Below, in pieces: positions 1 through 44,386 of a stretch of 53,564 nucleotides of DNA (within the stretch, counting starts at the first letter, position 1; each line of letters begins with the position of its first letter). Below the pieces are notes generated by a model. It ran no database searches. It saw only the letters and a program-made list of their open reading frames with translations, and was not told the DNA's origin. A program made the position numbers and the translations under genes. This DNA comes from a virus. Lineage: Duplodnaviria; Caudoviricetes. The stretch spans positions 1 through 53,564 of IMG/VR virus record IMGVR_UViG_3300042542_001939. One strand, written 5' to 3'.

Positions 1-67
1 TAGCGGAAAGGTCGGCACCTGCAACGAGGGTGACCTTTACCGAGTAATTGGAGATTTCGTATGCCAT
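1..67 (-). CDS. 5' end of a probable capsid decoration/cement protein (runs off the window)
   Basis: Manual translation MAYEISNYSVKVTLVAGADLSA... It starts 3 nt after the scaffold stop; the position and the AGADLS motif fit small head proteins. Confidence 0.55.
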   Translation of the reverse strand, partial: MAYEISNYSVKVTLVAGADLSA

Positions 68-70
68 GTT

Positions 71-868
71 TTAGGCACCTTTCTCGGATAGGTATTGGCT
101 GTAAAGGTCAGGGTTTTTTGTTGCAACATCAGCCAACGCCTGTGCGAATGACTTTGCTACACCCTCATCAACGGCAGACTTAGCAAGCGTAGTCATACGC
201 TCATAAGCATTGCCTGATTTGAAGTCCGCAGATTTGCCGATTTCTGCAAAAATATGTGCTGACTCTGCCTGTGCATTTACTGAAGAGAGAACCTCTTCGA
301 ATGACTTGGCTAGGTCGGCGTCTGCAAGAGCCAAACGACGGAGCGCTGGTCCTACGATGTTTGCATCGAGATTGAGGTTTTCCCAACCCTTTGCTTTTTC
401 AATTGCTTCTGCGTCAGCCTTGGCTTCGCGCTCTTTGCGAAGTTCCTCAGTTGCGTCAGCGGCTTGCTTGCGCAAGTCCTCTATCATCTTGACTACTGGA
501 GCAGGAGCAGACTTCATAAAGTCCTCATCCTCGGTCTTTTCTGACTTTGGTTCTTTTTCCCCGTACATTTTGTCCATCTCAGACAATTTTGCTTCAAGGT
601 CAGCAATCTTTTTCATTGCTTGTTCCATTGTCATCTCAGCCTTATCGACCTCGACCTCTTCTGTAGCCAAAGGTTTTACTTCATCCTGAGTATTTTCAGG
701 CATGGATTCCTCCTTGGTGAGCGTTTCGTCCAAGACTCTCTGAACTTCAGATTCATCGGCTGATTTCATAACCAGCCAACCTTCATGTAGGTGTGCAGGG
801 TGGTCTACTCCGCTGGTTTCTTCGATAGCAAGATTCACCATCTTACGAGTACGGTTTGCCAAAGTCAC
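71..868 (-). CDS. Capsid scaffold protein with a short protease-like N-terminus
   Basis: N-terminal EETSGVDHPAH motif, then an acidic coiled coil with many hydrophobic-x-K-[AS] sites. Lies downstream of the prohead protease. Confidence 0.65.
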   Translation of the reverse strand: MTLANRTRKMVNLAIEETSGVDHPAHLHEGWLVMKSADESEVQRVLDETLTKEESMPENTQDEVKPLATEEVEVDKAEMTMEQAMKKIADLEAKLSEMDKMYGEKEPKSEKTEDEDFMKSAPAPVVKMIEDLRKQAADATEELRKEREAKADAEAIEKAKGWENLNLDANIVGPALRRLALADADLAKSFEEVLSSVNAQAESAHIFAEIGKSADFKSGNAYERMTTLAKSAVDEGVAKSFAQALADVATKNPDLYSQYLSEKGA

Positions 869-965
869 TCCTAACGAACAGAGGACGCATTTTAAGCATA
901 TGGCTTAAAAAACTATCCTCGGGTCTTGACGATAGAAGAATACCATAAGCCTAAATTTGACCTTT

Positions 966-1232
966 TTAGAGATTTAATAAAACCCTTGTTTTGGCTAGGG
1001 CATCAGGTAGATTGGTGGAAACAAACATTGCAAAAGGATTCTCATTAGCCCAAAATCGTGCAGTCCTAAAGTGAAAGTCGTTGTCGTCTATTTTTGTCCA
1101 TACAAAAAAAGCCTGTGAGTCATTTGGTAACTCAACTTGTATTCCTGAATACCCTGGTGGGGTAGCAACCTTTTCAGTTTTTAGATTAAGCCCGTGAAGT
1201 ATTTCAACTGTTGTATCAATGATTGTTTTCAT
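966..1232 (-). CDS. Hypothetical protein
   Basis: 88-aa ORF co-oriented within the head operon. Confidence 0.6.
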   Translation of the reverse strand: MKTIIDTTVEILHGLNLKTEKVATPPGYSGIQVELPNDSQAFFVWTKIDDNDFHFRTARFWANENPFAMFVSTNLPDALAKTRVLLNL

Positions 1233-1249
1233 TAGATATTTTTCTAGGC

Positions 1250-1654
1250 TTAATCTTTTTTAAGTGTTGAAACCTTATGCCCGACTTTAGTTTCAGTTGG
1301 CTTACCATCTCGGTACAACTGAATAAGAGCCGCTGGGTCATCTTCTTTTCCTTCGATTGTAAAACTTGAATCAGGAACATTTATTTTTCCGTCTGATACA
1401 ACTCGAATTACTTTACCGCTTGCTCGACCACCTGATGAATTCCAAGAAACCATGTCGCCTGATGAGACAGAAAGAGCCTTTTTCATTGCATATGCCATAT
1501 CGCGCATACCCTTTTCAATCATTCTTTTTGCATAACCATTAAGACCTTTAATTCCCTTTTGTTCTACCTGCTCTTTGAGCATCGCATACTCATCGTCTTT
1601 CATAGACTTGAGAGAACCTTTGCGTAATTCTTCGAGAATTTTAATATCTTTCAT
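1250..1654 (-). CDS. Protein with a C-terminal Tudor-like (HVA1/DUF2945-type) domain
   Basis: GDMVSWNSSGG...GKVIRV...DDPA...VGHKVSTL pattern; ATGA overlap with the upstream gene. Confidence 0.65.
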   Translation of the reverse strand: MKDIKILEELRKGSLKSMKDDEYAMLKEQVEQKGIKGLNGYAKRMIEKGMRDMAYAMKKALSVSSGDMVSWNSSGGRASGKVIRVVSDGKINVPDSSFTIEGKEDDPAALIQLYRDGKPTETKVGHKVSTLKKD

Positions 1655-3615
1655 TTGGTTTCCTTTGGCTTCTTTTTCTTTGGATTCATAATTGTATCAA
1701 CATGAACATCTGTAACAGTCGGGTCGCTCTTTTCCATGTCCACAAATAGGCGCTCGGCTCGTCCACCAATCGAATAACCAAGAATCTCTCCTGCTTGTAC
1801 TTTCTCCCATGCCCATTCCTCCCAAATTACTCCTAGAAAAACTGTGTTTGCTGGATAGGTATGAGTGGTTTCCATTCCATCAACTGTTGTAATTGGAACT
1901 GTTAATTCATATGGGAATGACATAACTTCAACCCATTCACCTGCAACAACATCACGGTTATGTTGTAAGCGAATTCTACGGTCATCTGTTCGAACATAGT
2001 CCCACACGGCTCGCTGTAACTCTTCTGAATCTGTCCACTCTCCATGAGCATCAAGTTGGTCAGGAATGTACATGGCTCCAAGTGTGTAGCGTTTATCGTG
2101 TTCAGCCTTTGAAACTTTGTAAGCACCGCGAGTTGATTGTTCATCGCTTCCGTTTTTAGTAAAGGCTTGCCATTGTAAAGACTTCTTTGCTGGGGCATCT
2201 ATGGCTTGACCCTCAAAACCGTTTTCCTTCGACCACTTACTAGAAATGGCTAAGGCTTCATCAGCATTAACCGATAGACGATAAACAGGCAACTCAGCGC
2301 CAGGGTTATCAAAAGCAAAAGCAACTGAAGCGCCCCATGTGTGGTGACCGTCTACCACAAAGCCATCCTTCGAAATAAGGATTCTCTCGCCCTTTGGAAT
2401 CTCGCCCTTTTCTCTAAACTTTTCAAAGATTGCTCCTGAACGAGCAGAGGAGATTTCTTTCTGAATAGGCTTGAGAGTGGTTGGGTCTACCTTTTCCTTC
2501 TCGGATGTAATTCCATCGCTTTTCTCAATCTCTGCCAAGAAACGGTCACGCTCTTTACCAGGAATCTGTGGCATATCTTTGCGAGCAATACCCATACCTT
2601 CATCGCCAAACAACAGTGTGCCTTCAACGCTTAACTCTGTAAGGTCGGGATGGTCTGTGCGCTTTGCCGCTTTCATTAAGAAAGCAGAAACATTTTCCTT
2701 CTCAACCATCGGATGCTCGCCACGATTGATTGCGTCTGCGATTCCATCAGCCCAAGAGCCGTGAGTTTTTTGGTCATGCTGCCCTTGATTATGTTTAGAA
2801 ACTTCTTCTTCTTTCTCAGCGCGAGCAACGAGTGACTCAGACCAAGCAAACCCAGCATCTCCGCCCCAAGCATCCCAAGCAACCCGCCCTGGTGAAGGAA
2901 AACCTTTTTCCCCTTGAGAAAATCCAACAGCGTTTTTATCTACTTCATGGCGAGAAAAGAAAGATTTCATTCGCTTCAAAGTTTCAAGAGAAACATTTTC
3001 TCCTGACGCCAATTGCGATGCACGGCGACGACCAACTGCTGTAAAGCCATCTCCTGCTTTACCCTCACCAATCCAATCAAGTGCGCGACGGGCTGCGTCT
3101 CGAACTGACTTTGGCGGCGTGTTATCTGCCTTAGCAAAACGCTCTATCTGAGCAAGGCGCTCGTCGGCTTTTTTCTTGGAAGTGTAGGTTCCGAACTTGC
3201 GCTTTCCTGTTGAATCGTAAACTGTGAACTTGCCATCTTCTTCACGAATTATTTTCTCAAAAGGGTCAAGCGGAATCTGAACTGGCTCAATACGCATCTC
3301 ATAGCCGTTTGAGGTTAAGAAGGTTTGGACATTGCCTATGTTTGTTCCTGCCGACTTAATGACCTCTTGAATCATCTCTTGAGGCAAAGATGAGCCAAAT
3401 GAGGTTAGGTCTACATCATCTATGGAATCGACAAGAATCTCGTAGTTGTCCCATTCATCAACTGGGCGCTCCATCTTGCGTCGAGCCATTTCGTTGAGAA
3501 TTGTGTGGTGAACCTCGATAGTTGCTGGAGAGGTCTCAGACTTGTGGATACGCTCATGTAGCACTGTAAGTTCTTCAGCGCTAAGTGAGATTAACTTAGG
3601 AGCAATATCCGCCAT
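1651..3615 (-). CDS. Prohead protease polyprotein: C-terminal XkdF-like serine protease fused to several domains, including an HDQ-tagged ParB-like domain
   Basis: C-terminal YIPDQLDAHGEW...LQH...WEKVQAGEILGYSIGG; internal ILISKDGFVVDGHHTW; internal PPKSVRDAARRAL...AWDAWGGDAG domain. Confidence 0.8.
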   Translation of the reverse strand: MADIAPKLISLSAEELTVLHERIHKSETSPATIEVHHTILNEMARRKMERPVDEWDNYEILVDSIDDVDLTSFGSSLPQEMIQEVIKSAGTNIGNVQTFLTSNGYEMRIEPVQIPLDPFEKIIREEDGKFTVYDSTGKRKFGTYTSKKKADERLAQIERFAKADNTPPKSVRDAARRALDWIGEGKAGDGFTAVGRRRASQLASGENVSLETLKRMKSFFSRHEVDKNAVGFSQGEKGFPSPGRVAWDAWGGDAGFAWSESLVARAEKEEEVSKHNQGQHDQKTHGSWADGIADAINRGEHPMVEKENVSAFLMKAAKRTDHPDLTELSVEGTLLFGDEGMGIARKDMPQIPGKERDRFLAEIEKSDGITSEKEKVDPTTLKPIQKEISSARSGAIFEKFREKGEIPKGERILISKDGFVVDGHHTWGASVAFAFDNPGAELPVYRLSVNADEALAISSKWSKENGFEGQAIDAPAKKSLQWQAFTKNGSDEQSTRGAYKVSKAEHDKRYTLGAMYIPDQLDAHGEWTDSEELQRAVWDYVRTDDRRIRLQHNRDVVAGEWVEVMSFPYELTVPITTVDGMETTHTYPANTVFLGVIWEEWAWEKVQAGEILGYSIGGRAERLFVDMEKSDPTVTDVHVDTIMNPKKKKPKETK

Positions 3616-3640
3616 GTTCTAAGAGTAGCGGATGGTATTA

Positions 3641-3802
3641 CTACTCGGGTTTAATCTTTTCAAGTGCGGTTTGGGTCATTGCAATCAATTTGAGTTCAGA
3701 CTCTACGGAAGGATTTTCGTCATCCTCCCAATCAGGATTTGATTGAAGCCATTCCCGATAGGTCGCCTGAATGATTTTAAGTTCTTCTGTCCTTTTGCTC
3801 AT
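3641..3802 (-). CDS. Small acidic protein (53 aa), not in the ORF track
   Basis: MSKRTEELKIIQATYREWLQSNPDWEDDENPSVESELKLIAMTQTALEKIKPE; TATAAT lies 5 nt before the ATG (leaderless-type). Confidence 0.65.
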   Translation of the reverse strand: MSKRTEELKIIQATYREWLQSNPDWEDDENPSVESELKLIAMTQTALEKIKPE

Positions 3803-3820
3803 AGTTAATTATACCCTAGT

Positions 3821-6457
3821 TTATTTCTTTCCAACACTTGAGACAGGCTTTTCTCTTGGTGTGCCATCATAAACAAGCCCATCTCCGTCCATATCAATTG
3901 GACCTGATAAAAGATTTTGACCCTCGGCGGTAAGGATTTTCATGTATGGGATGTACTCCCCTCGAAGAAGTTCTTTACCTGACCAAGTAGTGTTTCCCAC
4001 CCCATCTTTGAGTGGTCTGTCTGCGCCTAAAGATGCAAAATCTCTTGGTGTAGGAAAATCATCTTCCCTCATGTCCCTAATATTTCCATTACTGTCTGTC
4101 ATTCGACTAAGAATCTCCCGCCCTTTTACTAAATCTTGAGCATAGAACGCTTTAGATTCTGCGGTGAATTCGGTAAGGTCATTATCAAGGTCATTTTGTC
4201 TTAACTCAAAAGCGCTGTTCAAAGTTTCAACAATGGAAGGTAGTTCATCTCGGTTCCAATCAAAACCACTATTAGCCCAATGTCTTGCTCCATCTTGTAA
4301 GCCAGCATTGAGGGTAATATGAGTCAAACCTTTTGCAATGTAATAATCCTCTGATTGCTGTAAGAATTTACCGCCAAAGCCAAGCCCCCGATATTCTTTA
4401 TCAATTTTTAAGAATTTATGCTCAACGCTCCATGTGCCGTTTTCCTCATCTTTGGAAAAAACGCGAACAATATCTTCCGTACTGACAGCATTACCTTGGT
4501 CATCAATGATTACAGAATTTACTTGTATGTCATTACCTTGAATAAACACTTCACTAACTGATGAAGAAAGAGTAATTGTTTCTCCTTGACGGTCACCGTC
4601 TCTAAACTCAGCGGTTGTTTCGAGACCGTAAACATCTTGAAATGCCTCTTTCAAACTCTCACTTACTTCAGGGTCTTTGAGGGAGCCATAATCATTTTCT
4701 TGCGAAAAGTTTTCTAAAAAGTCGGGTTCTTGGTCAATGTATTCTTCTACTACTTGGTTTCTATAATCATCGTAATTAGCCAACTTGTCCTCTTCAGACA
4801 TTGGCTCACCGTTTTGTTCTTCTAATTGTGTTATTAGATTATTGATTCTATCTTCTACTTCTTCATTGAGATAAGAATCATTGTCAATCATCATCATGGC
4901 TTTATCTCGGTCAATTTCACCGTCGCTACCTTCAAGAGCCTCATCTAATAAGTTGATTGTTGGTCCGCGGTCTTTGAACTCAGAGATGCGTTTTACATCT
5001 TCCTCGCTTCGACCCGTAGCCCATGAGCCATGAGTAGATTGGTCATGCTCTTGGTGCTTAAAAACAGGCTTTAATCCAGCCTGAAAGCGAATAATTTTAA
5101 TCTTTTGAAATGTTGCTGGTACTTGCCAAAACTCAGCAGGAAGCAATGCAACCTTTTGGTCGGCGAACTGTTTGCCTCGATTATTGAAGAAAGAGTTTTG
5201 TCCGCGAGTTTCTGTTGTGAGCGCCGCTCTAGCGTTCTCTGTAAACATTTGAGAGTGATGTACCCAAGCCGCCTCTTCGCCATCTTGACCAAAGCCTCGA
5301 CCAGTGGCAGCGTGTCCAAAGTAATCATGGACTGCACGGAATTTATCGTTTTGTAAATCACTAAAGAGTGGGTGAGCGCCAGTGCTTGCAGTTGCTAATA
5401 CTTTTAGGTTACCTGTGCTTACATCTGCAAACATTTCTTTAGATGTCTTATATGGGTCATCAGCAACGAATTCGACCTTGACCCCAAGGGTCTTAGTCAT
5501 GTAATCAAATTGTTCTTCTACTTCAGATGCTAGGGCTTCATATTCATCGACTGCATCTCTATCCATCTTCGGAAGAGTTTCATAAATATCAGCAATCTTT
5601 GATGCTCGTTCGCGGTTGGCTACGACCTTTGTGTAATCAATTGTGTCGTCAGGTTTTAAGCCTTTTTTGAAAGCATATTCTTTTGCACCATCTCGAGCGC
5701 CTTTGACTGAATCTTCAGGGTATCTATCTCCAGCCCAATTGCCATGAGTAGATTGGTCATGCTCTCCTTCACGATGCTTTTGGACTGTGTAACGCCCTAG
5801 GCAAACATGAGGAAACTTTACAGATTGCCCTCTATTGCCTGAAGGATTTCGTCCACGAAGGCGTCCGTCTCCTCTTCGTTCATCTCCTGAACTGGCTTGG
5901 GAGTCTCCACTAATACGGGCTTTGTTTGTTCGCTCATCGACTTCATCCTCCATGTAGATATACGAGTCATTAACGACATCGTAGATTGCTTTTTGGTCAT
6001 TCTTGAAACCTGCTCGTACACCCTCTGAACGAGAACTGTATCTTCTTGAGACATCTAAGTAAAGTTTTCCTTGGTCTACCCATGCTCCAAAAAAACTGCC
6101 TTTGTTGTCTAACAACTCAGCGTGGTCTTGGACATAATCCTTGATAGCCGTTCTCAAACTCGCCCTAGATGCCTTTAGGGGCTCGAAATCGAGTGTCCTT
6201 TCGGCTCCTGAATCAGATGCCATAAAACCATCTTTAGGCGAGGTTTTAGTTCGCAGGTCGATGGTAAATCCTGGTGTTCTTTTCTCGCTTAACTTGTCAA
6301 TGAGGCTAGTTATAGTTTTGCCTTCAAGTGTTTTAAGGTCATCGCCTACTACTAGGTTAGCCCAACTACCATGAGTTTTTTGGTCATGCGAACCATGTTT
6401 TTCCACAACAAGAGTAAGACCATTGCTTGAATCGTGTTGAAATTTTTCTAGGTTCAT
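3821..6457 (-). CDS. Three-module effector polyprotein: SAM-lyase-like, HDxxGH and GNAT acetyltransferase domains, each preceded by an HDQ tag
   Basis: Start set at ATG 6457 (ATGA overlap). Motifs GFT...GAWVDQGKLYLDVS...QKAIYD; FRAVHDYFGH...GEEAAW...ETRGQNS; KEYRGLGFG...GARHWANSGFDW. Confidence 0.75.
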   Translation of the reverse strand: MNLEKFQHDSSNGLTLVVEKHGSHDQKTHGSWANLVVGDDLKTLEGKTITSLIDKLSEKRTPGFTIDLRTKTSPKDGFMASDSGAERTLDFEPLKASRASLRTAIKDYVQDHAELLDNKGSFFGAWVDQGKLYLDVSRRYSSRSEGVRAGFKNDQKAIYDVVNDSYIYMEDEVDERTNKARISGDSQASSGDERRGDGRLRGRNPSGNRGQSVKFPHVCLGRYTVQKHREGEHDQSTHGNWAGDRYPEDSVKGARDGAKEYAFKKGLKPDDTIDYTKVVANRERASKIADIYETLPKMDRDAVDEYEALASEVEEQFDYMTKTLGVKVEFVADDPYKTSKEMFADVSTGNLKVLATASTGAHPLFSDLQNDKFRAVHDYFGHAATGRGFGQDGEEAAWVHHSQMFTENARAALTTETRGQNSFFNNRGKQFADQKVALLPAEFWQVPATFQKIKIIRFQAGLKPVFKHQEHDQSTHGSWATGRSEEDVKRISEFKDRGPTINLLDEALEGSDGEIDRDKAMMMIDNDSYLNEEVEDRINNLITQLEEQNGEPMSEEDKLANYDDYRNQVVEEYIDQEPDFLENFSQENDYGSLKDPEVSESLKEAFQDVYGLETTAEFRDGDRQGETITLSSSVSEVFIQGNDIQVNSVIIDDQGNAVSTEDIVRVFSKDEENGTWSVEHKFLKIDKEYRGLGFGGKFLQQSEDYYIAKGLTHITLNAGLQDGARHWANSGFDWNRDELPSIVETLNSAFELRQNDLDNDLTEFTAESKAFYAQDLVKGREILSRMTDSNGNIRDMREDDFPTPRDFASLGADRPLKDGVGNTTWSGKELLRGEYIPYMKILTAEGQNLLSGPIDMDGDGLVYDGTPREKPVSSVGKK
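5818..5937 (-). CDS. Overprinted 39-aa acidic peptide nested in the polyprotein linker
   Basis: GGAGGA 8 nt before ATG; MSEQTKPVLVETPKPVQEMNEEETDAFVDEILQAIEGNL. The main frame over the same bases is an R/G/S-rich low-complexity linker. Confidence 0.6.
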   Translation of the reverse strand: MSEQTKPVLVETPKPVQEMNEEETDAFVDEILQAIEGNL

Positions 6458-7179
6458 GACACAAACTCTACATCCCACACCTTGCCGCGCTGACCAACAA
6501 CCTTAAATTTACTATTGCGAGGCATTAAAAATTCAGCCTCAGTAGTGTTTGGAGTCCATCCATACATGGGTTCGTGATAACCCGCAGGAAAGATTCCCTT
6601 AGTACCAGCGGGTAACTTCATGCGAAAGACTAACCCGTCGTAATAAGGTTGAGAGCCACCGAATTGTTGAGCAACTCCAGCATCAATTGTTGTGGATGTA
6701 TAGCCTTTATCCTCATAAGTATCCCCGACTTTAAGATTTTCAAAAAACTTTAATCCGTTGCCTTTAACTCCTCTATACGCAACCAACTCTTCGCTCAATG
6801 CGGGAGCGGTCTCTATTGCTTTATCAAGCGAATTGACTGTTCCCATATATCCGTCATCGCTTATCTGAGGGTCGCGCAAAGCCTCATTCATGTCATAGCC
6901 TCCACGGCTTTCATAAAAACTTATTGCTGTTGAAAACTCAGGATGAGCCAACTCGGTAAATCCCGCGAGGCGTTGGCTAAATAGTTTCTCCATAAAATAA
7001 ACTTCTTTGTCGGTCTCTGACTCAAAAACTTTTACCTCGTCTTTGAACCAATCGGCAAGATTCTCATAGTTACCTGAAGCCCAGTTACCGTGAGTCTTTT
7101 GGTCGTGGCTACCGTGTTTTTCAACATTTTTGGCTCGGGTTATCTCTACATTTTCAAGGATGGTCACGAATCTACTCAT
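6454..7179 (-). CDS. HDQ-tagged ADP-ribosyltransferase (R-S-E clade, VIP2/Alt-like)
   Basis: YDMNEALR, AYRG, DKGYTSTT, EAEFLMPR (R, STT, ExE). Confidence 0.88.
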   Translation of the reverse strand: MSRFVTILENVEITRAKNVEKHGSHDQKTHGNWASGNYENLADWFKDEVKVFESETDKEVYFMEKLFSQRLAGFTELAHPEFSTAISFYESRGGYDMNEALRDPQISDDGYMGTVNSLDKAIETAPALSEELVAYRGVKGNGLKFFENLKVGDTYEDKGYTSTTIDAGVAQQFGGSQPYYDGLVFRMKLPAGTKGIFPAGYHEPMYGWTPNTTEAEFLMPRNSKFKVVGQRGKVWDVEFVS

Positions 7180-8468
7180 TTGTCTAACCTTTGAAAGACT
7201 GCGACATCCATAACATCATCTTTCCCCTCGTTTATTTTTTTATAGCCCATAAATTTTATGGAAGTTTCTCTTGGAAGTAAAACTTCTTTTTCGTTGTCAG
7301 CGGTAGATATATTGTCAAACAAATCTGAAACAGCATTTTTTACATAATCGACTGCTATACCTTTGCCTGTTTTAGATTCACTTGGCAAAATAATTGATGG
7401 TTTGTTGTCCGTTGTTCGAATTATCTGTAAATTTTGTAATACATCTAAACCTTCTTTACTTGTTATATCAACTCTAGTTGTAGACATAAAACCTTTGTCT
7501 GTTAATACATCTCCTTCTTCAAGAGTGTCTAGCACACTTTTATCAAAGACTCGATATAAATTTTTGTCGCCAAAAAGTTCAGGCGCTTCTTCTATAATTT
7601 TATCTATATCAGTGACTCTATTTTCTAGCATTTGACGGAACTGCTGGGCGTTAATGGAATCTTCTTCATTAGGGTTTCTATCAAATCTTCGTAAATAGCC
7701 ATTTATTGCTGCATATCCATCTGCTGTGTAGTCATTCAAACTTCTTACTTCATCGCGAGAAATTCCAACTGGGTCTTTACTTCCATCAGTTTTAATTCCA
7801 TATGTCTCAAAGTATGTGTTTTGGGCGTCCTCACCCTCGGTTTCTTCATTAAAGTTTCCAGTAGCCCAAGAACCATGGGTCTTTTGGTCATGCTGTTGGT
7901 GCTTTTTTACATTGCTCAAACTTTCCCATATTTTTTTTGCCTCATCTTTTGAATTTGGCATTTCGCTTTGTTGTTTCTGCGCACGACTTATTGCCTCCGC
8001 TAAAGTAAATCTTCCAACTTCTTTTAATTTTCCAAATCCTTGAGGACGCACAAAGAATCCTTGATTACCCGACTGGTCGCTGTAAAAATCCGCTTTTGTG
8101 TCCGATAATGGATTTTTAGTCCATGTCAATCCTGTTACATCGTATTCAATAACAGTCTCTCTACCTGTGGCGTAGTCTTGCCAAGTCTCAGGGTCTCCAA
8201 CAAATAATCCTGACTCACTAGATGTACCACCAAGCCTATTTGTTGGTTTGTAATCAGGATTCAACTCAAATTCCTCATCTGCAATATGCCACGCTTTAGG
8301 TCTTAATCCATTTTGTGAAATCGCATTACTAAATTCTTCAAAAGTGTTAAATTGTTTTGCTTGGATTTGTAAGCCTCCAGTAGCCCAACTACCGTGGGAT
8401 GACTGGTCGTGTTCTTGATGTTTGAATACTGGACGAAGCCCAGCCTCAAATTTAATTGTGAGGCTCAT
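7176..8468 (-). CDS. Two-module HDQ-tagged protein: N-terminal ART-like domain plus C-terminal R-S-E ADP-ribosyltransferase
   Basis: C-terminal YAAINGYLR, LYRV, DKGFMSTT, EKEVLLPR; N-terminal module AWH...GLFV...DYA. Confidence 0.82.
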   Translation of the reverse strand: MSLTIKFEAGLRPVFKHQEHDQSSHGSWATGGLQIQAKQFNTFEEFSNAISQNGLRPKAWHIADEEFELNPDYKPTNRLGGTSSESGLFVGDPETWQDYATGRETVIEYDVTGLTWTKNPLSDTKADFYSDQSGNQGFFVRPQGFGKLKEVGRFTLAEAISRAQKQQSEMPNSKDEAKKIWESLSNVKKHQQHDQKTHGSWATGNFNEETEGEDAQNTYFETYGIKTDGSKDPVGISRDEVRSLNDYTADGYAAINGYLRRFDRNPNEEDSINAQQFRQMLENRVTDIDKIIEEAPELFGDKNLYRVFDKSVLDTLEEGDVLTDKGFMSTTRVDITSKEGLDVLQNLQIIRTTDNKPSIILPSESKTGKGIAVDYVKNAVSDLFDNISTADNEKEVLLPRETSIKFMGYKKINEGKDDVMDVAVFQRLDK

Positions 8469-9469
8469 AATTTTCGCTCAGGAGGAAGAATCACCATTGT
8501 GCATCGGCAATTAGGGTGGACGATAGGAGCCTCAAGCCCGATAGAGAACAAACCATTCCAAGGAACGATTTCACCATCAAGGGGTGCGCAAATCTCGCAG
8601 GTGCGCTCATCAAGGGCTGTAACCCACATCTTTAAGGCACTAGGGTCTACAAACCCTGCTTTGTCAGCCTGTTTCCATCCTTCATAGCGTCCTTGATTTT
8701 GTGCAATCTGAATCTCCGTGCGAGCAATCATCACCGCTCTTTTACTTTGCAACTGGTCTGCATAAGCCGATGCACGAGTTTGAGAATTGCGTCGGGCTGT
8801 AGATTCTTTCTGACCTAATTTCATAAGCCGTGCCATCTCACGCTTTTCAAATTTAATGACCGCATCTGCCCACTTTGGATGAAGCCCAACAATATTCTTG
8901 ATGCGCTTTGCTGTTGCTCGCACATCCAACTGCTCATTGAAAGCATCGACAATAATTCTGCGCACTGCGATGCGTGTTAATTCGTCAATGCTTTGAATCA
9001 ACTGTCCAGCACGACTAGCGGCAAAGGCTAAAGAATCAGGGTTTGTCTTGTTAAAAGATAAATTAAATGTTGCCGTTGGAGGTGTAGGTCTTGCCCACGC
9101 TGGGATATTTGTAAAGTCCATGTTTGCCATCGGTGATTTGTTTGTAATCTTCACAGGCTTAGGTAAAAACGCAGGTAAGGCTAACTTTGGTGCAATAGAT
9201 TGAATTTGTTGTACTGCCTCTTTGCCACCGATGTCGATTGACTCTAAGAGTGCGGTTTCAATAGATTTACGATTACCGCCGACTGTAATTGCATTGAGTA
9301 AACGATTAAGTGAATCAGGGTCAAGGCGCGAGATGATACGAGCCAACTCTTCAACTTTGATTGTATTCGTAGCCTTACGAATAGCATCATAGAGAACTCT
9401 TGCGAGCGCTACTTCTTCTGCCGTTAAAGGGTTACGACGGTTACCGTCCCTGCCGAAAAAGATTGGCAT
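8465..9469 (-). CDS. Head morphogenesis protein (MuF / SPP1 gp7 family)
   Basis: IARTE...KMWVTALDERTCEICAPLDG...HPNCRC; directly follows the portal. Confidence 0.92.
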   Translation of the reverse strand: MPIFFGRDGNRRNPLTAEEVALARVLYDAIRKATNTIKVEELARIISRLDPDSLNRLLNAITVGGNRKSIETALLESIDIGGKEAVQQIQSIAPKLALPAFLPKPVKITNKSPMANMDFTNIPAWARPTPPTATFNLSFNKTNPDSLAFAASRAGQLIQSIDELTRIAVRRIIVDAFNEQLDVRATAKRIKNIVGLHPKWADAVIKFEKREMARLMKLGQKESTARRNSQTRASAYADQLQSKRAVMIARTEIQIAQNQGRYEGWKQADKAGFVDPSALKMWVTALDERTCEICAPLDGEIVPWNGLFSIGLEAPIVHPNCRCTMVILPPERKL

Positions 9470-9473
9470 GGTA

Positions 9474-10892
9474 TTAGTCCGTATCGCCGTCTAGCGGTTC
9501 GGCTCCTTCGGGACTTTCTAACTCATCTAAAGTAGAGGTCTCTTCTTCTTCAGGTGTCTCTTGCAAATTACCTTCAGGCATAGGAGGCATACCAAAGTTT
9601 GCTCCATCGTGTTCGGCTGGTGGTAATCCACTCAACTCACGAAGGTAATCTTCAAGGTTAGGGTCAGGCATCAATACACCTGCTCCAGCCAACTTGCTTA
9701 CAAAGTCTGCAATCTCAGTCAAATCAACATGGCTTACTTCACCATATGTTAGGTAGGGAGCGCGTGATGCGTCCATGCCATTTAACTTTAATAAACGAGG
9801 AATCGCGTATTGATTCATTACTTCTGCGATATTTTTTGCAATCGAATCAACTGACATTGACCATAAATCCATCTTGGATGTACCTAGGGCATATGAGCCA
9901 ACTCTGTCTGAACCAAGAAGAATAAAGTCAGAAAGAATCGACATTGCCATTCTTTGGTCGTAGCGTTGAATAATCTTGTCTGTATCGAACTGGCGTGAGC
10001 CACCTGATGACATTAACTGAAGGTCAAATAATTTATGTCCTGCATCATCGTAAATGGCTGGCATAACAATGCCTTCTTGCTCATTACGCTTAATAGATGT
10101 AACAATTTGTTGAATAGATGCAAGAACTGATGCTTGCTCAGGTGTTGCCGCTGAAGATAGGTACTCAGGTGGTACAAAGGCAACTGGCAGACCTGCTAGG
10201 TCGCGCTCGATACCAATGGCTTCAATCTCTTCAATGCGTCGCTTAAAGTAATAAGGGCGGTATGCGTTACGAAGAATGGAGCGACCTTCAGGGTTATTCT
10301 TTTGTGATGATGTTCGAAATAGTAAAGCCTTCTCAATTGGAATCTCATGGAAGCCACCCGTTGCTGGGTCTACTTGCTGGAAACCTTGGATACCGCCTTC
10401 TTCATCAAACATCCACTGGTAATAAGTCTCTTGCGCACGAATAGGCATCTTGCGCCATCCGATTTTGCCATCATCAAACTTAGATTTTGTTTTGTTATCG
10501 CGTGTATCTCCACCGCGTTTTTTGTAAACAATCTCGTGATATGAATAACCAAAGATAAGCATAGAAAGAATCTGAGACAAAGTTGAATCCCATGAATCGG
10601 ACATATCGTGCAAACAAGATTCTACGAACTCTGCTGTTTCTTTATCTTGAGGATTTACTTCACCGTCTGCTGAATTATCTGAATATGGGTCTACACGCCA
10701 TTCAAGACGAGTAATAACTTTCTCAATAGCAAAAAGCATTGAACCGATAGTTGGGTCATTGTCTGACATCTCACGATAAACGCGAGCGCCACGAACTCCA
10801 CGGAGAACGGTAAGGAACTCTTCGTAGACCGTTCCACCTGTACGGCGTAAACCCGTAGAACCTAGTTCTTCGAGGTTAAGTTTTTCTGCCAT
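9474..10892 (-). CDS. Portal protein (Mu gp29/DUF935-like)
   Basis: NPEGRSILR, GIERDLAGLP, GSYALG motifs; 472 aa; upstream of MuF. Confidence 0.9.
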   Translation of the reverse strand: MAEKLNLEELGSTGLRRTGGTVYEEFLTVLRGVRGARVYREMSDNDPTIGSMLFAIEKVITRLEWRVDPYSDNSADGEVNPQDKETAEFVESCLHDMSDSWDSTLSQILSMLIFGYSYHEIVYKKRGGDTRDNKTKSKFDDGKIGWRKMPIRAQETYYQWMFDEEGGIQGFQQVDPATGGFHEIPIEKALLFRTSSQKNNPEGRSILRNAYRPYYFKRRIEEIEAIGIERDLAGLPVAFVPPEYLSSAATPEQASVLASIQQIVTSIKRNEQEGIVMPAIYDDAGHKLFDLQLMSSGGSRQFDTDKIIQRYDQRMAMSILSDFILLGSDRVGSYALGTSKMDLWSMSVDSIAKNIAEVMNQYAIPRLLKLNGMDASRAPYLTYGEVSHVDLTEIADFVSKLAGAGVLMPDPNLEDYLRELSGLPPAEHDGANFGMPPMPEGNLQETPEEEETSTLDELESPEGAEPLDGDTD

Positions 10893-10905
10893 GTCTGCCT
10901 CTCAA

Positions 10906-11061
10906 CTACTCTTTGCTGGCTAATCCAACGACAATTTTTATTGCCTGTTCTTCATCAAACCCAGCCCTTTGCAACTCCATGAATAGTTCATGTGACTGCA
11001 CGGCAAAGACTCCAAGAACAGAAATAACGCCATCGCCACTAGAGGTAAAGTCGTTATACAC
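10906..11061 (-). CDS. Small hypothetical protein (51 aa), not in the ORF track
   Basis: GTG start; ...HELFMELQRAGFDEEQAIKIVVGLASKE; fills the gap before the portal. Confidence 0.6.
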   Translation of the reverse strand: MYNDFTSSGDGVISVLGVFAVQSHELFMELQRAGFDEEQAIKIVVGLASKE

Positions 11062-11093
11062 CTCACGATTATAGCGTGAAGTAAATTTAGCCC

Positions 11094-11393
11094 TTAGTAG
11101 CCGTCGAGGACAATCTCAAAACAATTTAGACGAAATGTTGCAAGGTCCATTGCAAACTTTTGCGCTAAAACTTTTGTGCCAGCCTGTGCGTATTCACGGT
11201 CCTCAAGTAATCCGCCAACTTGGTCAAAACGCTTAAAGATGACCTTGAAAGGCAATTCTTGTTCGCTAGTGGTCATGTGTACTTCTACATATTCCTTTGG
11301 AGCAATCTCCATTGAAACAAACGGGCGACCATCAGGTGAGACAACTGTTTTCGCGTTAGGAAGTTCCTTAACGAAAAAATCTGTCCATGCCAT
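11094..11393 (-). CDS. Hypothetical protein
   Basis: 99-aa ORF with purine-rich RBS (GAAGGGGG) and an upstream promoter motif. Confidence 0.65.
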   Translation of the reverse strand: MAWTDFFVKELPNAKTVVSPDGRPFVSMEIAPKEYVEVHMTTSEQELPFKVIFKRFDQVGGLLEDREYAQAGTKVLAQKFAMDLATFRLNCFEIVLDGY

Positions 11394-11441
11394 TTACTTA
11401 CCCCCTTCAGAGTATTTACAACCCCTAGCATACAACATGGG

Positions 11442-11885
11442 TTAGAAAGGTGGCGCATCCTGAGAAAGTGGGACACTCCATGGGTCGAACTGAGATACCG
11501 CTGGAGGGTTGTAAGAGGCATCTGAGCGCTCTGTGACTGAAACGCTGTAATTGTGGCGCTTGAGGTCAGCACCGACATTCCATGCTGTGACCGTAATTTT
11601 TGAGCGCTTAGCCCCTGTGTTTTTATCTTCCCATGATTCTTGAACTGCTGTTCCTGAGACGATTACTGAAACACCTTTGCGAAGTGAATCGGCAACATTT
11701 TCTGCCGTCTTACCCCATGCCTTGATGTCCCAAAAAGTTGTATCTGTATTTTCCCAAGTTCCATCGGGTTTCTTCGATGACTTTGATGAAACTACTGTAA
11801 AGGTTGCTAGTGCTTTTGCGTTCTGAGTGAACTTTAGTTCAGGGTCAGCAACTAGGTTTCCTGTGATTGTGATTGGTGCGCTCAT
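11442..11885 (-). CDS. ssb: Single-stranded DNA-binding protein
   Basis: ITITGNLVADPELKFT...AENVADSLRKG...DPW...PPF. Start moved to ATG 11885 (ATGA overlap). Confidence 0.95.
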   Translation of the reverse strand: MSAPITITGNLVADPELKFTQNAKALATFTVVSSKSSKKPDGTWENTDTTFWDIKAWGKTAENVADSLRKGVSVIVSGTAVQESWEDKNTGAKRSKITVTAWNVGADLKRHNYSVSVTERSDASYNPPAVSQFDPWSVPLSQDAPPF

Positions 11886-25093: not shown

Positions 25094-25439
25094 CTTTTAT
25101 CAGATAGCCCTTTGAGTAATTGGGTGGAATTGAACACTCAATCTTGCTTCCGTGCCTTTGAACTGCCTCAATCAACTGCGCTGTTGGTACGGTAATGACT
25201 ATCTCCTCCAGCACGAAAGACCAGTGACTTGCCTTGGTAGTTTGTAATCCCGATGGGTACCACTCTTTGTTGTTATCGCTCCAGCACCATACTTCGATGT
25301 AAAGGTTGCCAGTATTTTTCCAGCGCTTATCTCTTTTGACCTCAATGTTTTCCATCTTGAGAAGGTCTGCAACATAGGACTCACCCTCTTGCCCGAATCG
25401 TAAATCAATATCAAAATCCGAGCGCTTTACACCATCCAT
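25059..25439 (-). CDS. PD-(D/E)XK-like nuclease-fold protein
   Basis: DLRFGQEGE...IEVKRD...TGNLYIE...PSGL. Confidence 0.65.
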   Translation of the reverse strand: MDGVKRSDFDIDLRFGQEGESYVADLLKMENIEVKRDKRWKNTGNLYIEVWCWSDNNKEWYPSGLQTTKASHWSFVLEEIVITVPTAQLIEAVQRHGSKIECSIPPNYSKGYLIKVTDLLEVARGR

Positions 25440-27025
25440 GGGTTTGACTGTCCAATCGAAATAGGAGCGAAGGTTGGAATTACATTCTTGTTTTCATACA
25501 CTGCTAAAAGTATCGCTTCAGCACGGTCAGGAGAGGAAACGCCACGCTTTTTCATATCAGCCTTGGCTTCAATTTGTATGCGTCCTGAAGAATCAGATTT
25601 GAAAGTTGGTCCCGCTAACTGGGCTAGGACTTGCCTATCTACATCAAGGCGCAACTCTTGTTTCTCATCTCTTGGTTGCAATAGTTGGCGAGTATTCCAC
25701 CACATCTCGGCTCTTTGATTCTTAAACTTAGTTTGGTCTTTGGGCTTTTCTGCCACATTGACCCCAATAATCAGCGCTCGCATCTGACGCTCTTTGACCC
25801 ATCTATCGAGCAGAGATACAACACCCCATCCAACTCCGATGGTGTCAATCTTGACTCGTACTAAATCAGTGACACCGCGCTCTTTGTGAATTGCTACTGC
25901 CTTTTCAATTTCGGCGATGACTACTCCTGCAACATCAACAGCGTTTGCGTTTGCCTTGCCTGAACTTCGATGAATAATCGATGCCACATAGCCATCAGCC
26001 TTGGCAATAACGAACTCATCGCCACCATCGGATGCAATATCTACACCTAATCGAATAACAGGGCTTTGAACCATGTCCTCGTTTGTTGTAGCCAACTCTG
26101 CCCATGCGTAAGGGATGACCTTGCCCGTTCCTGTTTGGGTAAATCGTGCATGAACACGCGCTTCCACGAATGGAGAATCCTCGCCGAATTCACTGATTAC
26201 ATCATTGACCCAAGTTTCATCAACTAAGTGTGATGCGACTTCGTGGGCTTCTATGTGACTCGGACAAGTGCGACATTGACCTGTTGCTTCCCCAGTAAAG
26301 TTTGGTGTGTCATATGCACTGATAGGCAAAATGTTATAGAGCGGACTCGAACAGATACGCTCAAACCATGTCTGCTCTTGGTCTGTAGGTGGATTACCTA
26401 ATACGAGAAGGCGAGTGTGTCCACCTGTCATGAGCGCTTCAAGTGCGCCACCGATTTTATCTGAGATACCTCCAGCCTCATCAACCACAATTAAAAGATG
26501 AGGTGCGTGAATACCCTGAACCGCCGCCTCATTGTTATCGGCTGGTCTAAATCCGTAAGCAACGACCGTGCCGTCCATCTTCCACTCAGTCGTTAAGATT
26601 TCTCCGGGCAAGTCATGATTCATGTGAACTTTACGAATCTGCGCCCACATGATGTTTCTAACCTGCTTAAATGTTGATGCTGTAGTAATCGCAATTGCTG
26701 TACCAGGCGGATGAACTGCTATCCACCATGCAACCGCTCTTGCCGCAAGGTGCGACTTTCCGGGCGCGTGACAGGCTGGCACTACGGTTCTGCGATTATC
26801 ACGAATGGACTCAAGAATCTCTCTTTGCTTTGACCATAAGGTCTCGCCTATTCCATCTTGAATGAATCCAACTGGGTCGTTCTCCCATTGCGCCCAAGGG
26901 TTTTCAATCTCTGCATCAAGGATTACCGATAGGGCGTACTTCTCATCATCGGTGAGTGAAAGATAAATCTTTGTTCGCTCTTCAGGCGTGGCATTGAGAA
27001 CGAGGTCTACGAGCCGTTCAGCCAT
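25427..27025 (-). CDS. terL: Terminase large subunit
   Basis: Walker A variant CHAPGKS, Walker B IVVDEA, nuclease LGVDIA...SPDRAEA. Confidence 0.95.
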   Translation of the reverse strand: MAERLVDLVLNATPEERTKIYLSLTDDEKYALSVILDAEIENPWAQWENDPVGFIQDGIGETLWSKQREILESIRDNRRTVVPACHAPGKSHLAARAVAWWIAVHPPGTAIAITTASTFKQVRNIMWAQIRKVHMNHDLPGEILTTEWKMDGTVVAYGFRPADNNEAAVQGIHAPHLLIVVDEAGGISDKIGGALEALMTGGHTRLLVLGNPPTDQEQTWFERICSSPLYNILPISAYDTPNFTGEATGQCRTCPSHIEAHEVASHLVDETWVNDVISEFGEDSPFVEARVHARFTQTGTGKVIPYAWAELATTNEDMVQSPVIRLGVDIASDGGDEFVIAKADGYVASIIHRSSGKANANAVDVAGVVIAEIEKAVAIHKERGVTDLVRVKIDTIGVGWGVVSLLDRWVKERQMRALIIGVNVAEKPKDQTKFKNQRAEMWWNTRQLLQPRDEKQELRLDVDRQVLAQLAGPTFKSDSSGRIQIEAKADMKKRGVSSPDRAEAILLAVYENKNVIPTFAPISIGQSNPWMV

Positions 27026-27670: not shown

Positions 27671-28858
27671 TTATTCTACCTCAGTTGTACACGCTTCGAT
27701 TGGTAACTGTAATAATAGAGCAACATCTTTCCAGCCATAGATAGTGTTAGCCCATTCATTCAAATCCTCGGTATGAACTCTCATAGAGTGTTCGCCTACT
27801 TTGATGGTCGAGCGTCCTACTGGAATATGCCCTGGCTTCGACTTTCCCCCTGCAAGAATCTCGGCTACCTCTTCAGGGGTAAACCCTGTGCCTTTGAATG
27901 AGGTTGAGGTTAGTAGTTTATTCAACTCAGATGGGTCATAGGTTGCTAGGTCGCTAGTGCGGTTATCAACAATAAGAATCTTAATCTCTTCAACATCATC
28001 AACATCAATCCAGTGAACGGCTATCTTTTCCCACCCTAATTGAACTGAGGCTTGATAGGTATGGTTTCCTGAGAGTATGTGCTTTGTCCTTCTATTGGCA
28101 ACAATAGGTCGGTATTGACCCATATATGTCAGCGAATCAATTATTGCTCCTATGTCACCCTCTCTAGGGTTTAGTGGATGCACCATAACTTCGTTGATAG
28201 GTACGGTTTCAACATCATCTTCGTTTGTATCGTTTCTCTCACCGTTAGGTTCAGGTTCAACTGGCTTACGCTCAGGAAATCCAAGGCGCTCTTTGATTGC
28301 TTTGATGGCTTTCTGTTTTGTCGGTGCCTCGCTGTAGAGTTGTTCTTTCCATGCTTTGTAAGCATCCATCTCGACTGTAAACTTCCAAGCGCTAATCTTT
28401 ACTTCAGGGTCGCTAGGCAAAGGCTTAGAATCCCCGATTGAACTCTTATCGTTTCCATTGGTTAATCTATCTAAAGTCTCAACCTCAGATTGAGTAAATC
28501 CTGTTCCATCCAACTCAGGCAAGGCTTGAAGAAGGCTCTTTAGAAGTGGCTCGTTGTATCCCGCTAAGTCAGTCAAGCGATTATCGGCTAGAACTATTTT
28601 CTTGGCAGTCTGCTCATCCACATCAATGTAGGTAACTTTAATTTTCTTCCAGCCTATTTTTTTTGCCGCTTTGTAAGTGTGATTACCAGCCAGTATGTAA
28701 TTTGTTCCGTACTGCACCACGATAGGGCGATACTGCCCATGAATTTTTAGACTCGTGGCAATAGCATCTATGTCCCCACGCCTCGGATTGGTTGGATAAC
28801 CTTCAAGCGTGTTCAAGGCAACTGTAGCGACCTGACCTACTTTGATGTTGGCTTTCAT
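27671..28858 (-). CDS. Protein with two tandem ParB/Srx N-terminal domains
   Basis: Two copies of NPRxGDIxAI..SL...GQYRPIV...ILxGNHTY...DNR..DLA. Confidence 0.85.
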   Translation of the reverse strand: MKANIKVGQVATVALNTLEGYPTNPRRGDIDAIATSLKIHGQYRPIVVQYGTNYILAGNHTYKAAKKIGWKKIKVTYIDVDEQTAKKIVLADNRLTDLAGYNEPLLKSLLQALPELDGTGFTQSEVETLDRLTNGNDKSSIGDSKPLPSDPEVKISAWKFTVEMDAYKAWKEQLYSEAPTKQKAIKAIKERLGFPERKPVEPEPNGERNDTNEDDVETVPINEVMVHPLNPREGDIGAIIDSLTYMGQYRPIVANRRTKHILSGNHTYQASVQLGWEKIAVHWIDVDDVEEIKILIVDNRTSDLATYDPSELNKLLTSTSFKGTGFTPEEVAEILAGGKSKPGHIPVGRSTIKVGEHSMRVHTEDLNEWANTIYGWKDVALLLQLPIEACTTEVE

Positions 28859-29505
28859 TTAATAAACAACCACGCTTCAAAGTTATAGAACTTCCAAAAA
28901 CAAGCACCCTTATCAAAACCTGCTTCAACTGCCATAGCGATGTTTTCCTCGGCTGTCTTGGTTTTCATCAACGGGCGTAAATCTCGTTCTTTGCTCATTA
29001 TTTCATTCGAAGTAAAGTGCTTATTTTTGAAGTCATAGTAAGCAAAATTAAAAACATTTTCTAACTCACCGTCCTCCTCATGACACTTTTCTGCCCAAAC
29101 GAAACCGCCACCCTCTGCTAACTCTTCATACACTAAATTCAAAATAGTTTGCCTATCTCCCAGTGGGAGGAACTGCAAAGTGAAAATTGAAAGAATTAAA
29201 GATGGCGTCTTGCCAAAGTTATGAATTGAGCGTAAGTCTTTGCGAACGAACTGAACATTGTCATGGCTCTCAGGTAAAAGATTGCTTGAGATGTCAATGC
29301 CTAATTTGTCACCCTCGAAAGGTATGCTTTCAAGGAGCGCCCCTGTTGAGCATCCTAAATCAACAACTGAGTAATCTTCTTTGACAAAGAAAGTTGATAA
29401 GTCACGGATAGAATCGGCTAATAAATGGTAGTTTGGTATTGACTTGGCAATATGGTCATCAAAGTTATCTATCGTGTCAAAAGAAAATGGTTTAGTAGAA
29501 GTCAT
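28855..29505 (-). CDS. cmoA: CmoA-like carboxy-SAM synthase / SAM-dependent enzyme
   Basis: FDDHIAKSIPNY, DLGCSTG, FTLQFL, AEK, AGF, YNF match CmoA hallmarks; start at ATG 29505. Confidence 0.8.
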   Translation of the reverse strand: MTSTKPFSFDTIDNFDDHIAKSIPNYHLLADSIRDLSTFFVKEDYSVVDLGCSTGALLESIPFEGDKLGIDISSNLLPESHDNVQFVRKDLRSIHNFGKTPSLILSIFTLQFLPLGDRQTILNLVYEELAEGGGFVWAEKCHEEDGELENVFNFAYYDFKNKHFTSNEIMSKERDLRPLMKTKTAEENIAMAVEAGFDKGACFWKFYNFEAWLFIK

Positions 29506-43966: not shown

Positions 43967-44386
43967 TTATGCTGAATAAGTACCGCGTGTAACGGCACCT
44001 GTCACTTGGAACTCTGCTGAGAAAGTTACAACATCGCCAACTGCGCCACTCTTCTCGTAAGAAGTCATGAGGCACTCGCCTGTGTACTTTGAATCTCCAT
44101 TTGCTGAGCCTTCAGGTCCATACTCAAACGACAAAGATGCCGCTTGTCCTAGAACCGCGCTGAGGTGTGTATCAACTGTTGTATCGAAGTTACCTGAGAT
44201 TGAGATAGTTGCATCGCTCAAACCAACAATGTAGGTCTTTGCGTTTGAACCAAAACTTGTAGTTTCGGCTGTTTCGATTGTCTGTGGGAATGAAACATCT
44301 GTCAGCACATCGCTGATAGTAGTTATACTTCCCGCTGCATTGTCCACCTTAAATACGGTGGCTTTACCGTGTGTGAATGTAGGCAT
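43967..44386 (-). CDS. Major tail tube protein
   Basis: MPTFTHGK...ETAETTSFGS.AKTYIVGL.D. Confidence 0.85.
   Translation of the reverse strand: MPTFTHGKATVFKVDNAAGSITTISDVLTDVSFPQTIETAETTSFGSNAKTYIVGLSDATISISGNFDTTVDTHLSAVLGQAASLSFEYGPEGSANGDSKYTGECLMTSYEKSGAVGDVVTFSAEFQVTGAVTRGTYSA

Follow-up and report, generated by a model that had tools for sequence, protein, structure and literature searches.

A short histidine-rich peptide at the module junctions of a phage head-gene array is probably a head-protease cut site on putatively capsid-loaded and injected cargo

Our analysis of a viral genome record of the class Caudoviricetes (IMG/VR IMGVR_UViG_3300042542_001939; the whole stretch of 53,564 bases, with an estimated completeness of 88 %, is referred to below as the window) revealed seven copies of a short histidine-rich peptide, hereafter the tag, in four genes of the head module, designated A to D. 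All seven read V-x-K-H-x(2 or 4)-H-D-Q-[KS]-[TS]-H-G-[SN]-W-A. Sequence comparison suggests that the peptide is probably the cut site of a head protease on cargo that would be loaded into the capsid and injected. In the specific form that we favour, which we consider to stand at about an even chance, the tag would be a cut site of the resident prohead protease fused to a universal His-rich core, and would mark the module junctions of a capsid-cargo system. The residue that precedes the invariant first His of the tag (P1) was uniform within a protein and differed between lineages, with K going with a protease of the XkdF type, and this is the observation that is new here.

The first-pass annotation had described seven copies of the peptide, and each was found in frame, on the minus strand, where it had been placed:

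8382 to 8429, minus strand: tag A-1 (VFKHQEHDQSSHGSWA), 13 residues from the N-terminus of gene A
7863 to 7910, minus strand: tag A-2 (VKKHQQHDQKTHGSWA)
7078 to 7125, minus strand: tag B (VEKHGSHDQKTHGNWA)
6359 to 6406, minus strand: tag C-1 (VEKHGSHDQKTHGSWA)
5732 to 5785, minus strand: tag C-2 (VQKHREGEHDQSTHGNWA), the long-spacer form
5018 to 5065, minus strand: tag C-3 (VFKHQEHDQSTHGSWA), with a longer upstream stretch in common with tag A-1
2749 to 2802, minus strand: tag D (VSKHNQGQHDQKTHGSWA), the long-spacer form

A degenerate DNA pattern for HDQxxHGxWA matched the minus strand of the window seven times (2750-2778, 5019-5047, 5733-5761, 6360-6388, 7079-7107, 7864-7892 and 8383-8411), with no match on the plus strand and none for a reversed control, and apart from the seven tags the tripeptide HDQ occurs only twice in a six-frame translation of the 53.5-kb window. 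As a chance control, the same pattern was run over 596 Gb of prokaryote genomes and returned 102 stretches. Reading of the in-frame peptides identified real tags only in loci L240, L245, L266 and L301 (two tags), and the remaining stretches held one match each, mostly out of frame or lacking the upstream K-H. The chance rate is thus approximately 1e-10 matches per base, or approximately 1e-5 expected in the window.

The 30-nt core of the tag is 67-90 % identical in DNA among the seven window copies (mean 79 %), and in 40 of 147 pair-by-codon comparisons an invariant residue is encoded by different, synonymous codons. Given such differences, it is the peptide that is under selection, which agrees with the earlier view that the peptide rather than the DNA is conserved. 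This bears upon the idea of a DNA-level recombination signal or a recent duplication, in which nucleotides would be conserved for cassette shuffling. Such a signal would suit the gene fusions and fissions that fall at tags, but it is scarcely credible given the DNA divergence and synonymous differences above and a peptide that is conserved across 943 protein clusters at 50 % identity.

Those clusters were obtained with a profile built from 113 tags and searched against 1.84 billion representative proteins (clusters at 50 % identity), which gave 943 clusters at E ≤1e-3 and 23 at E ≤1e-30. The carriers come nearly all from phage or metagenome contigs and include phages in Actinomycetota genomes; the largest is a 7059-residue protein with 19-20 tag copies, and another, of 2201 residues, combines nine tags with eight ADP-ribosyltransferase (ART) domains. 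In viral contigs, at least 240 stretches match the tag DNA pattern, from at least 110 contigs by hand count, many of them with 4-12 copies. Across 842 instances the conservation of the tag residues, in order, was K 0.947, H 1.0, H 0.967, D 0.964, Q 0.992, H 1.0, G 1.0, W 0.997 and A 0.971, and the flanks were not conserved. AlphaFold2, run on the tag alignment, predicted the isolated tag to be mostly coil (mean pLDDT 72) with no fold, and on this model the tag is a linear motif and not a domain.

The earlier remark that the tag was not recognised as a named domain was borne out, as no family in Pfam (E up to 10) or NCBIfam (E up to 1) matched it, chance-level hits aside, and PHROG 2859 is a larger unannotated family that merely contains it. 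In the literature searched, including the papers on polyvalent proteins and MuF toxins, we found neither the motif nor a description of a conserved portable junction tag or of a tag split into protease-specific and universal parts. A 44-residue tag query gave no tblastn match against phages at E up to 10, a result that the shortness of the query may limit, and megablast of the tagged region gave no match among cultured phages. For P0011, a protein with L-type tags, no locus was found in the viral contigs.

The position of the tag within proteins is as regular as its sequence. Every tag, without exception, stands N-terminal to a module the size of a domain. In the set of the 120 best word-index hits, 108 of 119 proteins have their first tag ≤45 residues from the N-terminus, the gaps between tags (n=295) have a minimum of 99, a median of 217 and a maximum of 532 residues, and no tail beyond the last tag is shorter than 97 residues. 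Tags defined by the profile in 252 representatives gave gap quartiles of 196, 221 and 260, with the first tag at or before residue 40 in 194 of the 252. A leader of at least 11 residues precedes 171 of 175 N-terminal tags, and the median leader is 18 residues.

In the window, which has 43 % GC and a siphovirus-like gene set, the tagged genes belong to a head module that is ordered, on the minus strand, as portal, MuF, genes A to D, a Tudor-like protein, an 88-residue ORF and a scaffold-like protein, with the MuF stop codon overlapping the start of gene A. The main features are as follows:

9474 to 10892, minus strand: portal protein of the Mu type (PF06074, E 9.6e-43; phrog_113), at the upstream end of the head module
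8465 to 9469, minus strand: MuF-like head protein (334 aa), untagged (PF04233, E 2.1e-16)
7176 to 8468, minus strand: gene A (430 aa), consisting of a tag, the unnamed module A1, a tag and an ADP-ribosyltransferase (PF03496, residues 236-412), with HDQ at residues 20 and 193
6454 to 7179, minus strand: gene B (241 aa), consisting of a tag and an ADP-ribosyltransferase (PF03496, residues 83-227, E 3.3e-15)
3821 to 6478, minus strand: gene C (885 aa), with three tag-led modules, C1 (unnamed), C2 (HDxxGH module, phrog_3170) and C3 (weak GNAT)
1651 to 3615, minus strand: gene D (654 aa), consisting of an untagged N-terminal head-assembly-like domain, a tag, a ParB-like region (D2), an XkdF protease and a basic tail
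2806 to 3615, minus strand: N-terminal domain of gene D (residues 1-270), untagged and rich in hydrophobic-x-K-[SA]
1750 to 2118, minus strand: prohead protease domain of the XkdF type (Peptidase_S78_2; PF14550, gene D residues 500-622)
1250 to 1654, minus strand: Hva1_TUDOR-like small protein (PF11160, E 9.9e-9)
71 to 868, minus strand: scaffold-like protein (phrog_13547), homologous to Laroye gp24 and crowded with hydrophobic-x-K-[SA]

The first-pass annotation had placed four tagged genes between MuF and the prohead protease. The four genes are there, but the protease is not a separate gene and forms part of the fourth, gene D, of which residues 1-501 match phrog_2859 (E 5.8e-263).

The same association with head genes was seen in relatives and in distant carriers, where annotated arrays run portal, MuF, tagged modules, protease, scaffold and capsid. 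MuF is sometimes fused to tagged modules in carriers (625 aa with a tag at residue 393 in L034; 1878 aa with five tags in L019), and the protease is either standalone or fused behind a tag. The protease domain of L240 has a tag immediately behind its last strand, at the C-terminal end. The Tudor-like protein of relatives is either preceded by a tag, as in L240, or followed by one. In whole records the tags cluster in one array and the few outlying tags adjoin terminase genes. Among eight related contigs with near-identical head genes, the sets of modules differ, and one module family is a gene of its own in one phage and is fused in another, the splits always falling at tags. These observations uphold the earlier idea of a portable element that is tied to head-gene modules and stands ahead of variable enzyme domains. 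The nearest cultured relatives by portal, the Arthrobacter phage Laroye group (57 % identity), have MuF and a LigT-XkdF fusion and no tag.

The N-terminal domain of gene D opens the last protein of the array in 11 cases (the eight related contigs, the window, L215 and L225), and we read it as a head-assembly anchor and not as cargo. In its C-terminal half it is similar to the N-terminus of gp39 from Roseobacter phage CRP-821 (L345), a protein of 975 residues that is annotated as 'major capsid protein' and appears to be a fusion of a part like the gene D N-terminal domain, an HK97-type protease and a capsid protein.

The evidence for a protease site comes from the first three residues of the tag, which are hydrophobic-x-K, the motif that is crowded in the scaffold. 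Using shuffled sequences for expectation, the window scaffold holds eight hydrophobic-x-K-[SA] motifs against 1.39 expected (reached by none of 5000 shuffles) and gene D holds seven against 2.0, with genes A, B and C, MuF and portal at expectation. In relatives the motif is enriched in scaffolds (72 vs 10.4), in the gene D N-terminal domain (27 vs 6.9) and in standalone proteases (28 vs 5.4); portal (4 vs 4.0) and MuF (7 vs 6.9) show no enrichment. Scaffolds of the tag-less Laroye (11 vs 4.7) and of the distant L266 (11 vs 4.3) are likewise enriched in hydrophobic-x-K. The XkdF domain carries an invariant Ser in GYSIGG and a conserved V-S-K/A at its N-terminal boundary (a slash marks a presumed cleavage position), with the K at this edge invariant in 14 of 14 sequences. 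At P3 of the tag, a hydrophobic residue is found in 89 % of the 62 non-redundant N-terminal copies and in 82 % of the 200 internal ones. Two further candidate signals were set aside: avoidance of the protease motif by cargo holds for genes A to C of the window (one KS vs ~7.7 expected) and fails in relatives, and a 2.3-fold excess of hydrophobic-x-K-[SA] 11-30 residues upstream of tags came from a redundant set and has no counterpart upstream of the seven window tags.

The scaffold-like protein of the window has S directly after eight of its 26 lysines. Its N-terminus, ETSGVDHPAHLHEGW followed further on by KS, is a near-exact match to a motif of Arthrobacter phage Laroye gp24, and we take this start motif to resemble the E-x-S-x-V-x-x-PA strand that ends HK97-type proteases.

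The behaviour of P1 also points to the protease. In 237 of 250 proteins every P1 is K, two proteins are mixed, and the 11 proteins without any K have another residue throughout (six L, four Y, four E, three E, F, R or A). XkdF was present in all K-type records, namely the window, three of three and a further five of five records, with Mu-like_Pro in none of the last five, and in none of four non-K records. The latter comprise G002 (P1 = F; a complete 101-kb phage genome, L346/L347, with Mu-like_Pro at E 4e-19), G007 (P1 = Y; weak Mu-like_Pro), G006 (P1 = E; lambda-type portal, no protease identified) and a Streptosporangium prophage (P1 = E; weak Mu-like_Pro), the protease-scaffold protein of which is enriched in hydrophobic-x-E, matching its P1. 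The V-x-K part covaries with the protease family, whereas the His-rich core does not. The tags of G002 read x-x-F-H...HDQxxHGN-R-[DG], with W-A replaced by R-D or R-G in five of seven.

This covariation gives indirect support to the earlier proposal of a 'processing' signal, with the role narrowed to the first three residues of the tag; mature cargo probably begins with the core. Under the reading that we favour, genes A to D would encode a 'polyvalent' array of the phage type, a set of anti-host enzymes made with the head proteins. The first three residues of the tag (hydrophobic-x-K in the window phage) would be the cut site of the resident XkdF prohead protease, which would cleave between K and the invariant His after loading into the prohead and before injection. 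The K/H cut would take a leader of ~14-20 residues off tag-led proteins and separate the modules of polyproteins, while the core H-x(2,4)-H-D-Q-x-x-H-G-x-W-A would stay as the N-terminus of every released module of ~200 residues. The core may serve all modules in a common way, for instance by docking them in the prohead ahead of the cut or as a His/metal handle once the cut is made. A two-part tag of this kind would explain why every array junction and gene start is tagged, why leaders are retained and why modules are freely fused or split.

A number of observations weigh against this reading. In the crowded sites of the scaffold, K is followed by Ser or Ala, and K-H occurs 0 times vs 2.7 expected in nine scaffolds; as K-H never occurs there, a His at P1' may be cut poorly or act as a pseudo-substrate. 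In G002 P1 is F, yet its protease-scaffold protein is enriched in hydrophobic-x-E and not in hydrophobic-x-F (3 vs 3.7), and the enrichment of hydrophobic-x-K or -E in coiled-coil scaffolds could in part reflect helix periodicity. The cargo modules of relatives are not depleted in hydrophobic-x-K-[SA] (98 vs 80.7; KS 162 vs 155.7). As the K-type records are related to one another, few independent lineages underlie the covariation; of the four protease assignments in non-K records, two do not reach the Pfam cut-offs, and in one such record no protease was identified. Close cultured relatives have an XkdF-type protease and no tag, meaning that XkdF heads do not need one. Finally, cleavage alone leaves the near-invariance of the 11 residues after the cut unexplained.

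That near-invariance counts in favour of a pure loading peptide. The tag would then be uncut and would bind a conserved site in the prohead interior, on scaffold, capsid protein, MuF or portal, with several tags per polyprotein adding avidity. An 11-residue core that barely changes across lineages differing in protease and portal type, an isolated tag without predicted fold, the constant placement of tags N-terminal to modules and the absence of K-H from scaffolds all agree with this. However, one signal would suffice per polyprotein, yet each module is tagged, and this reading does not say why leaders of at least 11 residues are kept, why P3 is hydrophobic or why P1 is lineage-specific. The portals of carriers belong to PF06074, PF04860 and PF05136 and the capsids are Phage_cap_E-like or Phage_capsid_4; no single conserved receptor is evident. 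We regard an uncut loading peptide as possible, if unlikely.

Two further readings involve a metal. In one, the tag is a metal-dependent or self-processing linker in which a metal-bound His/Asp/Gln cluster self-cleaves or bridges tags, so that all modules would co-assemble with MuF- or protease-bearing proteins. Invariant H, H, D, Q and H residues in a short unstructured stretch fit such a cluster, a variable spacer of two or four residues with Gly suits a chelating loop better than a rigid groove, and the core is independent of the protease family. The lineage-specific P1 points instead to a protease acting in trans, and to our knowledge the tag resembles no known self-cleaving motif; a linker of this sort seems improbable. 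In another, by analogy with the histidine brace, cleavage by any resident head protease would free the invariant His to form, with the His, Asp and His that come after it, a brace-like metal handle on each cargo module, which would hold the cargo in the DNA-filled head or escort it out. We offer this as speculation that is rather unlikely to hold. If it did, the 14-residue core would mark capsid cargo universally, whatever the protease, and could be used to bring foreign proteins into phage heads and to spot injected effectors in any metagenome.

The domains behind the tags agree with the earlier view that the tag precedes variable enzyme domains. Among the 120 best word-index hits, 24 carry PF03496 and ~75 have no known precomputed Pfam domain, and further domains include SprT-like, GNAT, ATLF-like, ART-PolyVal, DRAT, DUF3626, XkdF and MuF. 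Across carriers the modules behind tags also include Zeta toxin, NUDIX, zincins and many unnamed domains. The families ART, ART-PolyVal, DRAT, Zeta toxin, NUDIX, GNAT and SprT-like match known packaged effectors. Zeta toxin, NUDIX and DUF4258 are among the cargo of G002, whose head module additionally encodes a GDP-mannose dehydratase and a 1319-residue AAA/CbbQ-like protein. With so many unrelated host-targeting enzyme families attached to it, the tag might instead act after injection, in the host cell, by binding a host factor, as a stability element or as a switch for effector activation. Tags also flank parts of the head that are not effectors (after the protease in L240, before the Tudor-like protein and after the gene D N-terminal domain), and a single shared host target is unlikely given that carriers span Actinomycetota phages and the 43 %-GC window; we think a role of this kind quite doubtful.

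In the window, the cargo labels of the first-pass annotation held in part. Module A2 and gene B are ADP-ribosyltransferases (PF03496, E 1.7e-13 and 3.3e-15). For A1, neither Pfam nor PDB sequences gave support for 'ART-like', and for C1 neither these nor named Atlas clusters did so for 'SAM-lyase-like'. The GNAT label of C3 derives from weak matches (Pfam E 0.037 and 0.21, PDB E 0.5-0.9) and the source names of homologues, and the ParB-like label of D2, for which Pfam and PDB sequences gave no support, derives from tblastn similarity to virion proteins of N4-like phages. In tblastn, genes D and C were matched by single modules only.

Module C2 (5075-5722, minus strand) is the most conserved module, containing FRAVHDxFGHAATGRGFGQDGEE and many invariant columns, and belongs to no named family. 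Its homologues occur in cluster C mycobacteriophages and in Rhodococcus phage E3 as gp205, annotated 'structural protein', and a divergent THGSVHTTGG motif precedes the homologue in Rhodococcus phage E3 and Mycobacterium phage Rizal. PDB sequences and the Atlas gave no support for C2 (HDxxGH) as a zincin-like processing peptidase. The three-module unit of gene C is kept in 47 homologues, in all of which its C-terminus (3821-3880, minus strand) carries an invariant GPIDxDGDGLVYDGTxREKP with a calcium-binding-like DxDGDG. The tail of gene D after the XkdF domain (1654-1740, minus strand) has a conserved DPTVxDVHVDTIM and then a lysine-rich end, NPKKKKPKETK, and may be the protease's own capsid-targeting tail.

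Elsewhere in the window, the terminase (25427-27025) and tail genes lie apart from the head module. Directly downstream of the terminase, at 27671-30583 (minus strand), are a ParB-like protein (phrog_8071, E 1e-165) and a DNA methyltransferase. Two adjacent ORFs at 43967-45111 (minus strand) both match major tail protein PHROGs (10528 and 9522), the second sharing the N-terminal part of the first, and may be a frameshift or read-through pair. A 5'-open ORF at 52962-53564 (minus strand), with matches to tail-fibre or virion-structural PHROGs, runs off the window end. The major capsid gene that relatives carry after the scaffold (325 aa) is missing from the window and was probably lost at the ends of the record, within the absent 12 %. 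A promoter and terminator scan of positions 1-11500 gave no signal above shuffles.

The proteins that a phage injects along with its DNA are its first means of countering host defences, and they are difficult to recognise from sequence. If the tag marks capsid cargo, it would flag effectors among the 943 clusters, most of which are unannotated. The combination of a lineage-specific cut site and a universal core suggests that prohead-protease specificity may be read from genomes, and the tag itself suggests a portable peptide for loading chosen proteins into phage capsids.

Several known systems resemble the tagged array in part. In T4, head-internal injected proteins, including an ART, carry a capsid-targeting sequence, a short N-terminal leader that the prohead protease gp21 removes at hydrophobic-x-E. 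The leader and putative protease site of the window tags follow a similar logic, as tag leaders (median 18 residues) end in hydrophobic-x-K and scaffold enrichment and covariation point to a protease site there, and the E-type tags of some lineages (V-x-E/H) match the T4 consensus. However, the T4 signal is N-terminal only, has ~10 residues, leaves no conserved peptide and is not repeated in polyproteins, and the only protease that Pfam identified in the window is of the XkdF type (PF14550) and not of the gp21 type (S77). In the giant phages phiKZ and SPN3US, many head-internal proteins, ejection proteins among them, are cut by the prohead protease at the short motif that is also used in the scaffold and capsid proteins; these motifs have three residues and, unlike the tag, are not followed by a conserved peptide. 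The MIX motif of type VI secretion and the cargo-loading peptides of encapsulins are portable peptides that mark unrelated cargo of one system, and are analogous only, with unrelated sequence and machinery and no protease junction.

The MuF polymorphic toxins of Jamet et al. 2017 are reportedly head-module toxin domains linked to MuF. In the window, by contrast, MuF is separate, untagged and has PF04233 only, and most cargo has no MuF domain; MuF and toxin share one protein in the relatives L034, L019 and P0133. In the MuF-toxin paper (PMC5576092) we found no mention of a motif, linker or cleavage.

The closest likeness is to polyvalent proteins, which, according to Iyer, Burroughs, Anand, de Souza and Aravind (2017, PMC5512222), combine 2-15 effector domains (ART, GNAT, DdrB-like ParB, zincin peptidases) beside portal/MuF genes, with the phage type predicted to be packaged and injected. 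In the main text of that paper we found no mention of a conserved peptide between modules, and the processing proposed there is by zincin metallopeptidases, whereas the junction in the window tracks a prohead serine protease. A preprint reports that proteomics of phi24B virions detected a large polyvalent protein (10.64898/2026.04.10.717836). PF18760 (ART-PolyVal) is present in some tag carriers. In the window, at least two unrelated effector-type domains share a polypeptide (the unnamed module and PF03496 in A, three modules in C), and the genes lie among packaging and late genes (portal, MuF, A to D, scaffold). An assemblin-like peptidase, XkdF, occupies residues 500-622 of the 654 residues of D, at the C-terminus. 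Taken together, the array of genes A to D fits phage-type polyvalent proteins, including their C-terminal assemblin-like peptidase.

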